From: a virus
Taxonomy: Duplodnaviria; Caudoviricetes
Direction: 5' to 3' (one strand)
Length of the DNA stretch: 64,000 nt
Virus record (IMG/VR): IMGVR_UViG_3300033068_001704
Location: 128,001-192,000 of that record
The position numbers and the translations under genes were made by a program. Below the pieces are notes generated by a model. That model saw only the letters and a list, made by a program, of their open reading frames with translations. It did not search any database and was not told the origin of the DNA. This document shows, one piece after another, positions 55,437 to 62,016 of this stretch (the first letter of the stretch is position 1; each line of letters opens with the position of its first letter).

Positions 55437-58400
55437 ATGACTGCGGAAATCGTCAAGAGGGTCGCTCTCCTCAAGCTCGCGGAAGACGAAGCTCAAGAGC
55501 TTACGTTCCAGGAGTGGTTGAAGGACCAGCCCGCATCAGGGATGTCCGACCCGATCTCGGAGCGGATCTACCCGCGCTTGCGCTCGAAGCTCGGGCCGAT
55601 GGCGATCCCGTTCTTCCAGCTCTACGGGCAGACCCGTCTCATGATGGAGGGGGCCCCTCCTCCGGAAGAGGGCCTCGTCCAGGCCTGGAAGAACGCCACG
55701 AAGGGACTCACCCGGGTCCTCGCGGCGAAGCTGGGGGACCAGGGTCCCCCGCAGCTCATCAACTCGATCTTCGATCGCATGACCGCGGTTCGCCCGGTAC
55801 TTCGGAAGATCGAGCAGGGGTACGGGCTCTACGCGTTCCGCACCGCCGGTGACCAGATCTCCCAGGTCATCGCGGACGTCTGTCGGGCAGTAGGGCTTCC
55901 GGTCACGATTCGTCCCGGCGTGGATGCGGCGAAGTGGCCCCTGGTTCGTCGTTCGAGCGAGAAGGAGCAGCAGCTCGATCGCCTGAAGGCGGACAACCCG
56001 TCCCTCTACGCTCAGATCGTTGAAGGGCGTGAGAAGCTCCGCAAGATCGACATCCAGGTCGTCGAGTCGATCCAGCGGGCTGGGTTGCTTCCGACCAAGA
56101 CGAAGATCCGTGGCCGGCTCGTGAACCTGGGCGTGGACCCCGTTACGAACGAGCGGATGGTCTACACGAATGATGGTCGTGTGGTCTCGGTCGAGCAGTT
56201 CTCTCAGGAGATGGTCGAGGGTCACGCAGTTCGAGAGCGGTCCTCGAAGATCTTCCCGAATGGTCTCCCGAAGGGAGGGAAGACGGACCCCTCTCTGGAG
56301 GGTCTCCGCATCCTCACGGATGTGCAGGTCTCCGACCCCGACGTCATCCCGCAGCAGGAGATCATCTACCGAGCCCTCACCGACGATCTCGCGGCAGAGG
56401 GTGGCACCCGTGTCTACCCGACGAAGATCGATGCAAAGGGTCGCCCGGTCGTCATCGATGGTCGATTCAAGGGCATCTATCTCGACGACCTCGTGAACCG
56501 TGCAGGCCGCCTCATCGAGGGCGCCGCGTTCGACTTCGACGCACGCGGCAAGATGGTCCGGTTCGAGACCAAGAACCCCGATGGTTCCCCCAACCTCGCC
56601 GCCCGCAAGGAGCCGTACGTGACGGTCACGGCGGATGGGCGGCTCATGGTCAAGGTCCCGTTCAAGGGGAAGAACGACCCGTTCACCAGCGCCCGCCAGG
56701 AGATGGACCGGCTTGCGCGCCCCACGCGCATCCCGACGATCGAGAAGGTCGCGGGGACGATGAACACGACCTTCATCTTCCCCGAGAAGGACTACGCGGC
56801 CGTCCGACGCGCTGTGGGCGGCATGGTCCTCTCGAAGGCCGCGGCCGACAAGCTCAAGGCGTACTTCGATCAGCTCGAACGCCAGGAACGAGCCCTCACC
56901 GAGGAAGCGACGAAGAGCTACACCCTCTCGGCGATCGGTGGCTTCAAGATCGAGGCGCTGATCGACCCGGCCTCTGGGCTTCCGTACGATCCCCCGCGGT
57001 TCAAGCCGGACCTCTTCGGGAAGCAGAAGGAGGCGATCTCCTGGGCGGAGTCGAAGGGCTACCGTGGGCTTCTCGCGCTCGACACCGGCATCGGCAAGAC
57101 GCTGACTTCGATCGCCACCATGAAGAAGATGGAGCGGGACGGGTTCGCCCAGGATGGCACCCGGTTCCTGTACATCTGCCCGACGAAGCTTCGGGGGAAC
57201 TTCGCCAGGGAGGCGCGCGCGAGCCTTCAGGAGGCGGGGGCCTTCCTGAGCAAGGTGGACGTCATCTCCTACCAGCAGTTCGCCAGGAAGCGGAAGGAGA
57301 ACCCCAAGTTCGGGACCGTGGACGGCGACCCGGCAGCGGGGGTCCCCCCGTACGTGGCGGTCTTCTTCGACGAGGCTCACGTCCTCGTGAAGAACCCGTC
57401 GTCGGTCGGCTCACGGGCGGCCCTGAGTCTGAAGCACCCTCGGAAGATCCTGCTCACGGCATCCCCGATGGAGGATGACCCGGACGAGCTGTACATCGGG
57501 GTGGCGATCACCAACAACATCGACCTGAACGAGCGCGGTCCGGATGGCGGGGTCTCCCCGGCGGTTCGAGACATGATGCGGTTCCGGTCCCGGTTCTGTC
57601 AGACGGTCGGCGGACGCACCCTCGGCTTGAAGGCCGCGGACGCAGAAGATCCGACCAAGACGGAGGACTTCTACGCGTGGGCGAAGTCCAACTTCTACGC
57701 CGCGAACAAGCGCGACGTGGTCGAGAAGCCGCTGCCCGAGCTGCGTCGTGAGTCGAAGACCATCACGATGGACCCTGCGGTCGAGACGATCTACCGCGAG
57801 GAAGCCCAGAAGGTCGCCGAGGTCCTCAAGGCCGCCGTGACGGTCTTCCGAGACAAGGGCAAGGTTCGGAGCGATCAGGTTCGAGACCTCTTCGGCATGA
57901 AGCTTCGGAAGTCGTTGGCAACGCTCAACGACCTGTCGAACATGCCTGCGCTCCTCATCCCGGGTTCGCGGTCCCCCAAGGTGGAGGCCTCGGCCGAGAT
58001 CGTGGTGGACCGGATCTCTCGTGGTGGTCGAACGATCCTGTTCACCGACAGCCCGAAGTTCGCCGAGTACACGGTCCTCGAACTGTCGGTTCGGGTCCCG
58101 TCGCTGCTCCATGCTGTCGCGCTCTCCGGTGAGATCGCCGTCTACCAGAACGGTCGCAAGATCGCGAAGTACGGCCAGCGCATCTACCGGAACAAGGACG
58201 GGGTCGAGATCCCGAAGCAGGAGTGGGCGAGCTTCGTCCTGCGCGAGATCATCGGGGCCGACCAGCAGGTGTCGAGCCTCGTGTTGACGAGCGGCTACTC
58301 CTTCGGTCAGAACCTCCAGATGTTCTCGACGGTCGTCCATCTCGATCGAGATGGGTTCTCCTCGGAGACGATGAAGCAGCGGACGGCGCGTGCGTGGCGT

Positions 58401-58724
58401 ACCGGTCAGGATTCAGCGGTGGACGAGATCACCCTGGACATGGCCTACAACGACACCGAGTCCACGACTGACTCGACCCTCGACGAGGTCCGCCGGTACA
58501 TCCAGGAAGTCCAGGAGACCCTCTTCAACGAGATCGTCGGCAAGTCCCAGGCTGCCGCGATCGGTAAGGAGTGGTCCGAGATGGCGAACGTGGACGCGAG
58601 CCTCGTAGCGGTGAACCGGAAGCTCGTGGAGATGACGCTCGCGCCCCTTGCCGCGGCGATGGGTGAAGCAGACGCTGCCGAGCGTTCGGCCGTGGTTGTG
58701 TCCAGGACGGTGATGGTGTCATGA
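55437..58724 (+). CDS. Large SNF2-like SF2 helicase with about 520 aa N-terminal extension
   Basis: LDTGIGKT, FDEAH, TAS, GQNLQ, QRTARAWRTGQ. Confidence 0.85.
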   Translation: MTAEIVKRVALLKLAEDEAQELTFQEWLKDQPASGMSDPISERIYPRLRSKLGPMAIPFFQLYGQTRLMMEGAPPPEEGLVQAWKNATKGLTRVLAAKLGDQGPPQLINSIFDRMTAVRPVLRKIEQGYGLYAFRTAGDQISQVIADVCRAVGLPVTIRPGVDAAKWPLVRRSSEKEQQLDRLKADNPSLYAQIVEGREKLRKIDIQVVESIQRAGLLPTKTKIRGRLVNLGVDPVTNERMVYTNDGRVVSVEQFSQEMVEGHAVRERSSKIFPNGLPKGGKTDPSLEGLRILTDVQVSDPDVIPQQEIIYRALTDDLAAEGGTRVYPTKIDAKGRPVVIDGRFKGIYLDDLVNRAGRLIEGAAFDFDARGKMVRFETKNPDGSPNLAARKEPYVTVTADGRLMVKVPFKGKNDPFTSARQEMDRLARPTRIPTIEKVAGTMNTTFIFPEKDYAAVRRAVGGMVLSKAAADKLKAYFDQLERQERALTEEATKSYTLSAIGGFKIEALIDPASGLPYDPPRFKPDLFGKQKEAISWAESKGYRGLLALDTGIGKTLTSIATMKKMERDGFAQDGTRFLYICPTKLRGNFAREARASLQEAGAFLSKVDVISYQQFARKRKENPKFGTVDGDPAAGVPPYVAVFFDEAHVLVKNPSSVGSRAALSLKHPRKILLTASPMEDDPDELYIGVAITNNIDLNERGPDGGVSPAVRDMMRFRSRFCQTVGGRTLGLKAADAEDPTKTEDFYAWAKSNFYAANKRDVVEKPLPELRRESKTITMDPAVETIYREEAQKVAEVLKAAVTVFRDKGKVRSDQVRDLFGMKLRKSLATLNDLSNMPALLIPGSRSPKVEASAEIVVDRISRGGRTILFTDSPKFAEYTVLELSVRVPSLLHAVALSGEIAVYQNGRKIAKYGQRIYRNKDGVEIPKQEWASFVLREIIGADQQVSSLVLTSGYSFGQNLQMFSTVVHLDRDGFSSETMKQRTARAWRTGQDSAVDEITLDMAYNDTESTTDSTLDEVRRYIQEVQETLFNEIVGKSQAAAIGKEWSEMANVDASLVAVNRKLVEMTLAPLAAAMGEADAAERSAVVVSRTVMVS

Positions 58725-59142: not shown

Positions 59143-59369
59143 GCCCGTTGGAGAAGGCCCGCAAGATCTGGGACGACCTGGATACCTACGGGAAGTCCCA
59201 GCTTCTAATCTGGGGCACCTCGTTCACGACCTATGAGGACGAGGGTCCTGAGGTGTGTGGGTACTTGGGCGAGATCGTGACAGACATGAGGGCGCAGGTG
59301 AAGGCCCACGGCAACGTGGTGTGCGGAAACCTGCTATGTGAAGTCTGCGGAGAAGCAACGAACCGGTAG
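59139..59369 (+). CDS. Hypothetical protein with C-terminal Cys cluster
   Basis: Start MSPLEK via ATGA overlap; H...CG...CEVC. Confidence 0.55.
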   Translation: MSPLEKARKIWDDLDTYGKSQLLIWGTSFTTYEDEGPEVCGYLGEIVTDMRAQVKAHGNVVCGNLLCEVCGEATNR

Positions 59370-59378
59370 GAGGGTGTG

Positions 59379-60063
59379 ATGGAAAGCGTGATCGTGGAGA
59401 TTCGAGCTGGTGAAGGCGGAGACGACGCCAAGGCCCTGGTCCTCGAACAGTTCGGTGTGTACGGCCGGCTGATCGAGCGGAAAGGTCTTTGACGTCGCTC
59501 TGATTGAGTCTCGCTCCGGGTTCCTTTCCTTCCAGGCGAGCGGCAAGGGAGCCAAGAAGACGTTCGAGCGCGAGTCGGGAGGTCACCGCTGGCAGCGTGT
59601 ACCCCCGAACGAGAAGAGAGGTCGCGTTCAGACCTCGACCGTCACCGTCGCTGTGCTGGAGGAGCCGAAGGAGGCTGACCTTCGCATCGAAGAGCGGGAC
59701 ATCGAGTGGATGACGTGTCGCGGCTCAGGGGCCGGCGGACAGCACCGCAACACGACCGACTCCGCGGTGCAGATGACGCACCTTCCGACTGGGATCCGAG
59801 TCCGAGTCGAGAGCGAGAGGTCTCAGCATCAGAACCGGGACACGGCGTACCGGATCCTTCGCGCGCGTGTGTATGAGGCCCGACAGGCTGCGACGTCAAA
59901 GGCGCGGGATGCGTCTCGACGTCAGCAGATCGGGTCCGGGATGCGCGGGGACAAGATCCGAACGATCCGAGAGCAGGACGGTCAGGTCACTGACCATCGC
60001 TCCGAGACCCGGATCCGGTACAAGGACTACATCCGAGGGAACTGGGAGGGCCTCCTCCCGTAA
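59379..60063 (+). CDS. RF1-like class I peptide chain release factor lacking domain 1, joined by a +1 frameshift (59379..59489 + 59491..60063, 227 aa)
   Basis: Frame 0: MESVIVEIRAGEGGDDA...YGRLIERKGL-stop. +1 frame: DVALI...ESGGHRWQRVPPNEKRGRVQTSTVTVAV...GSGAGGQH.N.TDSAV..THLPTG...ERSQHQNR...G.RGDKIRT. Confidence 0.9.
59475..59493 (+). other. prfB-type programmed +1 ribosomal frameshift site CTT-TGA-C
   Basis: GAGCGGAAAGGT-CTT-TGA-C; CTT at 59487-59489, TGA at 59490-59492; release-factor homology continues in the +1 frame. Confidence 0.8.
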
Positions 60064-60503: not shown

Positions 60504-60748
60504 AGGGCCTCCGTTACGGTGAGGGACCCTACCTCGACCATGATGAATCTCCGGACCGTGAACTCCTTCATGTCGTGCCCACCCCTCTTGAGGCGGTCCA
60601 TCTCCATCTCGATGGTCTTGTCGGAGGTGTACGCCGTGGCGTGGAGGGGGCTGCTGACGAAGGTGCACCCGAGACCCTGATCGGAGTACCGGCCGGGGAT
60701 CAGCCACCCCTTCTCGCGGTGGTGGATGTACGCGACATCGAGGCTCAT
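60500..60748 (-). CDS. Hypothetical protein
   Basis: 82 aa from MSLDVAY, GGAGG SD, ATGA overlap with the ComM-like gene. Confidence 0.55.
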   Translation of the reverse strand: MSLDVAYIHHREKGWLIPGRYSDQGLGCTFVSSPLHATAYTSDKTIEMEMDRLKRGGHDMKEFTVRRFIMVEVGSLTVTEAL

Positions 60749-61998
60749 CGGAGGGCCTCCGTCTGCGCGGCCGAGCGCGTGACCGAGACTTGGGGGGTGT
60801 GGTCGCGGTTGTTGTGACGCACGTCTCGGATCGTGATGACGATGTCGAACAGGTCCTGGAGAGGAGCGATCCTGGACTTGAACGCCTCGATCCGAGCCGG
60901 CGTGCACGAACAGGTGTTGATCAGCTCCCCGTGGTAGCCGCACGGGCACGGAGCCATGGACCCGATGACGATCGGTCGTGCCGGCATGGTGGTGTGGGTC
61001 TCCTCTCGGACGACGACCACCTCCCCCTGCTTCAGCGCGTGGGCGAGGGCGTGCAGCGCGGAGAGCTGGAACTCCGGAAGCTCATCGAGAAACAGGACGC
61101 CGTTGTGCGCGAGCGTCACCTCCCCCGGTCGGATCGGGTCCCCTCCGCCGGTCAGGGCCGCCGTGCTGGCGGTGTGGTGAGGGGCCCGGAACGGACGGGA
61201 GAACGTCGAGGCGAGCATCCCCGAAGCGCTGGCGATCGAGGCGATCTCCTTCTCTTCGTCCGGGCTCGGGGTCGCGAGCAGGCTCACGAGGCACCGACCC
61301 AGCACGAGGCGACCCGAACCGGGAGGTCCGACGAGAAGGACGTTGAGCTTGTTCTTAGCCGCGAGCTTCAGCGCCTCCTTCGCCTCGTCGAGGCCGCGGA
61401 TGTCGTCCAGGTTGGGGCCTTCCCGGTCCGGGACCTCTGCCGGGGGTTTCGTTGCCAGCACCGACCCGGGGACCGCGTCCAGGAGCGTCTTGATGGAGAC
61501 CACGTCCTGGAGCGTCTTGACCTCGAAGAGGTCCATGCCCGGAACGAACTTGGCGTACCGAGCCGAGTCGCGTGGAACGAATGCCTGACGGACACCACGG
61601 TCGTAGGCTTCGAGGAGGATCGGGAGGAGACCTCGGACCGGGCGGACGTCCCCCGACAACGAGAGTTCACCCACGTAGATCGCGTCGTCCTCCATGATCC
61701 TGCCGGTTGCGGCGATGCAGGCCACGGCGATCGGGAGGTCGAGACTCGCCGACCCACGCTTCGGCAGATGAGGGCCGTTCACGGTCGCGGTCCACGCCTT
61801 GTCGGCGCGGGAGTCGTAGTAGCCGAATCGGAAAAGAGCCGAGGACACGCGGATCCGGGTCTCGTTGTTCGAGACCTCGGTCAGCTTCGGACCCACGACG
61901 TCGATCGGACCTCGTCTCTGGTCCCCGCCTTCACCTACCTCGATGGTGATCGGATGGCCCTTGACCCCTACCACGAACCCGGACTGAACTCTGAACAC
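60745..61998 (-). CDS. comM: ComM/YifB-family (Lon-C plus AAA+) protein, truncated and with altered Walker A
   Basis: DLPIA, GELSLSG.VRPVRG, GPPGSGR, PFRAPHHTAS, GEVTLAHNGVLFLDELPEF, PCPCGY; start placed at the GTG after GGAGG. Confidence 0.85.
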   Translation of the reverse strand: MFRVQSGFVVGVKGHPITIEVGEGGDQRRGPIDVVGPKLTEVSNNETRIRVSSALFRFGYYDSRADKAWTATVNGPHLPKRGSASLDLPIAVACIAATGRIMEDDAIYVGELSLSGDVRPVRGLLPILLEAYDRGVRQAFVPRDSARYAKFVPGMDLFEVKTLQDVVSIKTLLDAVPGSVLATKPPAEVPDREGPNLDDIRGLDEAKEALKLAAKNKLNVLLVGPPGSGRLVLGRCLVSLLATPSPDEEKEIASIASASGMLASTFSRPFRAPHHTASTAALTGGGDPIRPGEVTLAHNGVLFLDELPEFQLSALHALAHALKQGEVVVVREETHTTMPARPIVIGSMAPCPCGYHGELINTCSCTPARIEAFKSRIAPLQDLFDIVITIRDVRHNNRDHTPQVSVTRSAAQTEALR

Positions 61999-62016
61999 TG
62001 GCACCTCCGGTATATA

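Follow-up and report, generated by a model that had tools for sequence, protein, structure and literature searches.

A short RF1-type release factor gene with a prfB-like frameshift gate in a large phage contig, and the possible stop-codon range of its family

The DNA analysed here, a window of 64,000 nucleotides, is part of a 222-kb virus contig with 63% GC, an estimated completeness of 50%, and 38 tRNA genes together with a tmRNA. In this window lies a gene which is read through an internal CTT TGA into the +1 frame and encodes a short release factor (Table 1), and of which the gene caller gave merely a 136-aa piece. Upstream of the release-factor gene cluster there is a SNF2-like helicase of 1,095 aa (window 55437-58724, plus strand), and beyond it follow a ComM/YifB-like AAA+ ATPase of the Mg-chelatase family with an N-terminal Lon-C-like domain (60745-62004, minus strand) and an inorganic-pyrophosphatase-like protein (PF18823; 63312-63983, plus strand). 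The last of these has in common with several other ORFs of the genome a short segment resembling RVASR(F/Y)L or LRSKLIRLAH, which may be a sorting or packaging signal. The small ORFs upstream and downstream of the release factor gene gave no PHROG or Pfam match, a scan for promoters and terminators gave no signal beyond chance, and neither rtcB (PF01139) nor prmC was found in the contig, which is estimated as 50% complete; for rtcB this confirms and extends the remark of the initial annotation that the gene is not adjacent. Outside the window, the contig holds 37 tRNA genes in an array with ORFs between them (G000:C1:9273-20013), one of these ORFs resembling HNH-type genes near other members of the family described below, and also an additional tRNA-Arg and a phage tmRNA with the tag ANDNSYAQAIAA (contig positions 74947-75329).

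Table 1. Features of the short release factor gene, in window positions.
Feature	Position	Strand	Details and basis
Short release factor gene	59379..60063	+	227-aa joined product; ATG at 59379, TAA stop at 60063
AGGAGG ribosome-binding site	59368..59373	+	From the sequence; start ATG 5 nt downstream
0-frame ORF of 37 codons, ending CTT TGA	59379..59492	+	First strand of domain 2 and helix 5; no domain 1 ahead
Helix-5 tip G-E-G-G-D-D	59409..59426	+	Alignment profile; G13 = RF1 G120, E12 = T119, D16 = E123
GEGG	59409..59420	+	Inside the 0-frame ORF, upstream of the interval 59581-59760
Internal Shine-Dalgarno-like stimulator CGGAAA, weakened	59478..59483	+	Duplex energy with E. coli-type anti-SD
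prfB-type +1 frameshift gate CTT TGA C	59487..59493	+	Motif definition as in PMC12421855
+1-frame ORF, residues 38-227, stop TAA	59491..60063	+	Rest of domain 2, domain 3, shortened domain 4
Six-residue deletion site between F48 and L49	59521..59526	+	Loses RF1 156-161 / RF2 173-178; alignment
Stop-codon recognition loop Q72-S86, of RF1 length	59593..59637	+	Q72 = Q185, R73 = R186, Q84 = H197, T85 = T198
P-P-N tripeptide (PxT position)	59602..59610	+	N one base away from T
Catalytic GGQ, intact	59734..59742	+	G119, G120, Q121 in 100% of the family

The initial annotation drew attention to the interval 59581-59760, which on translation encodes the protein from G68 through the recognition loop to just beyond GGQ, and described a P-P-N in place of the RF1 PxT motif, a GEGG and an intact GGQ; all three are borne out by translation and alignment. 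The recognition loop has the length of E. coli RF1 Q185-S199, and P75, P76 and N77 align with P188, A189 and T190. The 227-aa protein exceeds the cut-offs of both Pfam RF-1 (109 bits) and PCRF (67 bits), the PCRF match being restricted to model positions 101-194, and its NCBIfam scores fall in the order prfA (219 bits), prfB (143) and prfH (93), each under the curated cut-off (423, 370 and 167 bits, respectively). Its predicted structure (pLDDT 88) superposes on ribosome-bound RF1 with a TM score of 0.92-0.93 by query, and with a GGQ domain and the domain 2/4 fold the protein belongs to the class I release factor superfamily. Measured against canonical RF1, it has a PxN loop of RF1 length with Q185, R186 and T198, but it lacks domain 1 and the length of about 360 aa, stays below the prfA cut-off, and carries D16 in place of E123, a deletion in place of the GG(F/Y)KE hairpin and IREQD in place of YNFPQ. 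The predicted model looks like open RF1; as a single model with no control structure beside it, it is not counted here as a sign of an unstable closed state.

That domain 1 is absent, as the initial annotation held, is confirmed by the PCRF coverage and by a domain-1 HMM, which recovered canonical RF1 with E values of 1e-22 to 1e-30 and also E. coli RF2; neither in the 222-kb contig nor ahead of the genes of 262 relatives did it find a match, so that no hidden or split domain 1 was met there. In published experiments neither release nor specificity needs domain 1, and RF3 does (PMC1586002), and by this analogy its loss supports the proposed RF3-independence for the family as a whole. The GEGG had been set against GTGG as the RF1 reference; the reading itself is correct, but position 119 in our RF1 sample is A in 73%, T in 18% and E in 5%, so GTGG is not the norm of RF1, and E is rare in RF1 and fixed in the short family.

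The best 120 database matches of the protein are all short, from 136 to 245 aa, with an identity of at least 52%, and 262 distinct genes of this kind were rebuilt from viral, metagenome and genome collections. On an IQ-TREE tree, made by a quick search with no bootstrap and few outgroups, a branch with an SH-aLRT of 92 sets off 183 family representatives, which are joined to canonical RF1 (92), while RF2 and PrfH fall outside this clade, PrfH on a long branch of its own. The phylogeny that had been proposed as a check thus places the family as sister to RF1 and apart from RF2 and PrfH, and with the absence of PrfH signatures it upholds the view that the protein is not PrfH. The family was found in large phage contigs, in many Myxococcota and in some other bacteria, and in 5/5 cellular genomes checked the short factor comes in addition to a pair of full-length ones. 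Of the gene families in its neighbourhood none is seen again in more than 9 of 183 loci, which indicates that the short factor works alone, as a single gene. Myxobacterial genomes, complete chromosomes included, commonly carry the gated short factor (e.g. L090, L425, L447), and relatives are present in Archangium gephyra and Nannocystis exedens; this is a hint that Myxococcota may be hosts to such phages, and provides cultivable hosts for the study of the factor. Some early-branching and mostly ungated members (L053, L056, L063, L064, L187, L251, L252, L257, L278) have Arg at the position of RF1 I196, like RF2 R213, a residue that discriminates against third-position G. This Arg occurs in about 12/20 ungated and 8/235 gated genes, a comparison confounded by kinship, and it may mark a different specificity. 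There is also a divergent actinobacterial subgroup, ungated and with PRN, PKN or PNN loops (L251, L252, L257, L274, L278, L289, L294). No description of the short family was found in the literature searched, to which theses and most subscription papers did not belong; a thesis is said to name a frameshifted phage release factor 'bRFU', and a search on this name within the same scope, theses outside it, returned nothing relevant. A 2019 survey of bacterial release factors covers just four kinds, namely RF1, RF2, PrfH and ArfB (PMC6514570). The present phage gene belongs to a widespread family of short class I release factors of RF1 descent, which appears to be undescribed in the searched literature and, as judged from its sequences, combines an RF1-like fold with a prfB-like regulation outside canonical RF1, RF2, PrfH and ArfB.

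The most constant feature of the short family is the gate. After removal of one canonical RF1, the 262 distinct rebuilt genes comprise 151 with a frameshift at TGA, 56 at TAG and 6 at TAA, 22 with a single in-frame stop, 20 with no gate and 7 irregular ones. The CTT-stop sits at codon 37-38 in 201/213 frameshifted genes, usually behind GGAGG, and CTT stands before the shift stop in 210/213 of them as against 0/176 gene ends in the present genome, so CTT TGA C is not there by chance. Substitutions with respect to six close relatives fall mainly on third positions, of frame 0 before the gate and of frame +1 after it, which means that both parts of the gene are coding and under purifying selection. 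On a tree built without the loop and gate columns, TGA and TAG were exchanged in the gate at least 34 times. Among 691 residue tests no residue of the reading head was found to track the gate codon; the best association elsewhere, at Q151, has p=1e-4 with the 691 tests uncorrected and the rows related. The internal SD has the consensus CGGAGG in 100/213 frameshifted relatives and reads CGGAAA in the present copy, with duplex energies to an E. coli-type anti-SD of -10.0 and -4.7 kcal/mol, respectively. With this SD two G's short of the closest relatives, a lower frameshift efficiency is predicted, and the present copy is possibly made at a low level.

Published surveys reported no programmed shift in prfA, and TAG in none of 8,164 prfB gates, the prfB product being unable to read UAG; from this absence it was concluded that gate codon and codon range of a factor go together (PMC12421855). 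According to a review, UAG or readthrough counterparts in bacterial release factor genes are unknown (PMC5009743). Some relatives have, in place of a frameshift, a single in-frame TGA at codon 37-38, near the conserved W144 of RF1, or at 46-52 (L016, L055, L061, L263, L280, L281, L310, L401, L482, L486, L584:4974-5678); since some of them end in TGA or sit in standard-code bacteria (a Variovorax plasmid), gating by readthrough is suggested. Five low-GC ones with two TGA may come from code-4 genomes, and coding density is of little use as a code-4 test in that removal of a stop raises it in any case. We also observed an RF2-like match in a Prevotellaceae MAG (G007:C214:2275-3270) with TAA where the gate usually has TGA, a possible CTT-TAA prfB site.

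The family departs from RF1 at a set of positions outside the tripeptide. At the helix-5 tip, T119E is seen in 100% and E123D in 97% of the members with G120 kept, the figure for E119 being partly circular as E was used in picking members, although the tree and the domain-1 test agree with the picks. In RF1, G120 and E123 contact U1 (PMC3974865). The hairpin of RF1 156-161 / RF2 173-178 is absent in 93-100% of the family, the loop consensus is PPxE[KR][RK]GR, YNFPQ is replaced and the last helix lost, and the median net charge is +10 (RF1 -2.5, RF2 -5, PrfH +7). At the codon-contact positions of RF1 the residues are the same or conservative replacements (G120, Q185, R186, T/N190, H/Q197, T198). 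The RF2 mutants which gained UAG reading map to E167, E172 and K177, are thought to destabilise the closed form, in which K177 and E172 make a salt bridge, and hence to allow opening without exact codon recognition (PMC7530605). K177 falls among the residues deleted in the short family.

The explanation we favour, with a confidence just short of even, is that the protein would be a self-limiting and RF3-independent terminator which reads UAA, UAG and UGA. By analogy with established work, a ribosome pausing at the internal UGA when termination is slow would let tRNA-Leu slip by +1, from CUU to UUU, and the full protein would be made; having no domain 1, it would release peptides with no use of RF3 (by analogy, PMC1586002). 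The product would terminate at UAA and UAG and also at UGA, and would then turn off its own synthesis at whichever stop fills the gate. Candidate causes of the UGA reading are the E119/D123 helix-5 tip, the loss of a 156-161 hairpin that aids the closed state, and the basic charge. For the phage, whose 176 rough gene calls end in TGA 118 times, in TAG 38 and in TAA 20, the benefit might be a one-gene, self-limiting top-up of termination when host RF1 or RF2 is scarce. Of the initial proposal that a UGA-inclusive specificity closes a loop with the frameshift, this retains the loop, as the leading hypothesis and by way of the gate codons and the family-wide changes, and drops the Asn as its cause. 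The wider statement, that a natural bacterial-type factor for all three stops has been spread by huge phages and myxobacteria, RF3-free and self-limiting, and owing its breadth to the helix-5 tip and the hairpin deletion rather than the tripeptide, we put forward somewhat more tentatively; broadened specificity is a possibility at the level of the family.

The main rival, a rather less likely explanation, is that the protein is an ordinary UAA/UAG RF1 that lost domain 1, its UGA gate giving no feedback and either sensing host RF2 or generally slow termination, or keeping expression low; a gate can sense host factors, or just dampen expression, with no feedback involved. UGA reading is open to doubt because the contact residues of the RF1 type are conserved, the tested PxT and PxN factors, as far as PMC3472500 relates them, read UAA/UAG, and a Pro at the first tripeptide position weakens UGA reading, as RF2 S205P does (PMC11903333); a truncated RF1 is, moreover, functional in vivo (PMC1586002). 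On the other side, this explanation requires that one protein be regulated in two different ways, with at least 34 switches between them; in a genome where about 67% of the genes end in UGA, a UAA/UAG factor would do nothing for slow termination at that codon; and no reason is given for the fixed E119/D123 or the loss of the hairpin.

It is improbable that the protein is a codon-independent rescue or anti-defence factor like PrfH or ArfB, which would free ribosomes stalled by host nucleases acting on tRNA, mRNA or rRNA and whose gate would be a sensor of stalled termination. The lack of domain 1, a basic charge close to that of PrfH, the carriage by huge phages, among them the present one with its tRNA genes and tmRNA, the extra paralogue in cells, and a degenerate tripeptide in close relatives (PKG, PKH, SKT, SPS) would all suit such a factor. 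However, rtcB was not found in the contig and no neighbour family recurs beyond the 9 of 183 loci given above; neither the GP tip nor the SxY-R loop that mark PrfH is present, and on the tree the short family stands apart from PrfH; ArfB resembles the short factor weakly and in the GGQ half alone, and the full codon-reading domain is conserved. For the rescue or anti-defence option of the initial annotation we met no positive evidence, the signatures and partners of PrfH and ArfB being missing.

Very improbable is the idea that the change from T to N itself switches specificity, with PPN members reading UGA and PPT members not. It draws on the contact of T190 with the first and second stop bases (PMC3974865) and on the rarity of PxN in canonical prfA, as a nucleotide pattern written for a PxN version of the RF1 loop has 52 matches in 185,579 genomes, of which 3 are full-length RF1, 4 are not release factors by score and the remainder are of the short family. 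That PPN might be a common variant among canonical prfA, which would have made the loop ordinary, is therefore ruled out. The three full-length genes, with PVN, PQN and PAN (L268, L275, L299), belong to Opitutia, Prevotellaceae and Acidobacteriota MAGs, each is the sole over-cut-off prfA of its own MAG, and two of the three adjoin prmC, so PxN is very rare but compatible with a housekeeping job. PxN is in fact a described non-canonical RF1 motif, and models put its Asn on U1, as they do Thr (PMC3472500); the PVN factor of C. elegans is specific to UAA/UAG and full-length PxN loops show codon-specific release, in the account of Young et al. 2010 given in PMC3472500. Among 223 family genes not selected for N the tripeptide is PPT in 161 and PPN in 28, others including SPT, PPS and PPG and, among the closest relatives, also PKG, PKH, SKT and SPS; a tree from which the loop columns were left out calls for at least 32 changes between N and T. 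Were N the source of UGA reading, it would be expected with UGA gates, and no such association appears: the counts of TGA to TAG are 47:15 for N and 116:40 for T (Fisher p=0.86), TGA making up 74% of the gates of PPT members and 76% of those of PPN members. A sign test on independent pairs, of little power, has a median p of 0.5; the pairs that differ favour N with TGA by 2.7 to 0.5 on average, and are too few for a test. The claim that a novel PPN loop alters specificity is rejected on these grounds, and PPN would seem to be a functionally near-equivalent spelling of the usual PPT of the family. Equally remote is a broken RF1 remnant, i.e. a frameshifted pseudogene or an inactive A-site decoy, which the need for a frameshift, the missing domain 1 and last helix, the weak internal SD and the 136-aa call might suggest, and against which stand the third-position-biased divergence on both sides of the shift, the same CTT-stop at codon 37-38 in 201/213 frameshifted genes, an invariant GGQ and a confident RF1 fold.

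Bacteria are held to need two release factors. Laboratory evolution of a single all-stop factor is limited by toxicity; the collateral toxicity that limits broadened RF2 mutants (PMC7530605) also speaks against the all-stop reading of the short factor. PPN by itself is of small weight, as PxN is already described. If the all-stop reading is true, a natural factor of 227 aa would reveal specificity residues outside the tripeptide, would put to the test the divergence of RF1 and RF2 from their common ancestor, and would be a tool for genome recoding. Even if the factor reads only UAA/UAG, an RF1-type gene with a UGA/UAG frameshift gate goes beyond the published surveys, with their lack of a prfA shift and of a UAG prfB gate.

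Comparison with known systems sets the family in place. With the PxN variants of RF1 (C. elegans mtRF1a PVN, Cryptococcus PAN, Plasmodium plastid PKN; PMC3472500) it shares the Asn at the third tripeptide position, and the full-length loop type of the present protein matches the Cryptococcus and Plasmodium cases; those variants are otherwise canonical, whereas in the short family N is one of several states and the differences from RF1 lie elsewhere. PrfH (RFH; TIGR03072; PMC1586002, PMC6514570) likewise has no domain 1, about 200-230 aa, a GGQ and a net basic charge, but it has a GP tip, an SxY-R loop and linkage to rtcB, where the short factor has a GG tip, a PPN-E loop and no rtcB found in its contig; the BLASTP similarity is limited to the GGQ half, and the score against the prfH model is 93 bits with a cut-off of 167. 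From RF2 (prfB) the short factor differs by the lack of SP(F/Y), D143, R213 and domain 1, by 143 bits against 370, and by its separate branch. ArfB (YaeJ) shares the GGQ domain and RF3-independence, with 28% identity in the GGQ half only; the stand-alone GGQ domain, the basic C-terminal tail and the lack of a codon-reading domain that mark ArfB are not seen in the short factor. Release factors of giant viruses have the eRF1 fold. Their genes (PMC3521657; noted in PMC5009743) are, like the present one, viral release factor genes broken by stop gates, of both readthrough and frameshift kind, and are unrelated to the present bacterial-type protein. Recoded phages are a known source of phage release factors (10.1101/2021.08.26.457843), but the present phage has no suppressor tRNA among the 38 tRNAs of its contig. 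Nearest stands RF1 itself (prfA; TIGR00019, NF001859), with about 40% identity over domains 2-4, a TM score of 0.92-0.93, the same loop length and a sister position on the tree; equivalents of G120, Q185, R186, P188, T198 and GGQ are retained, while the short factor has no domain 1, a C-terminus shorter by about 20 residues, E119/D123, the 156-161 deletion, a replaced YNFPQ and a basic charge, and its gene has an internal stop gate, no adjoining prmC and the standing of an extra rather than a housekeeping copy. In its regulation the family resembles prfB with its +1 frameshift SD-N3-CUU-UGA-C (PMC12421855, PMC5009743): the layout of an SD-like element, a 3-nt spacer, CTT, a stop, usually C, and a remainder in the +1 frame is the same, the SD being weak in the present copy. 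It differs in that the gate of the short family lies in an RF1-like gene after helix 5 and that of prfB within domain 1, in that some relatives carry an in-frame stop, which is unknown for bacterial release factor genes according to the review (PMC5009743), and in that UAG fills 26% of the short-family frameshift gates as compared with 0/8,164 in prfB.
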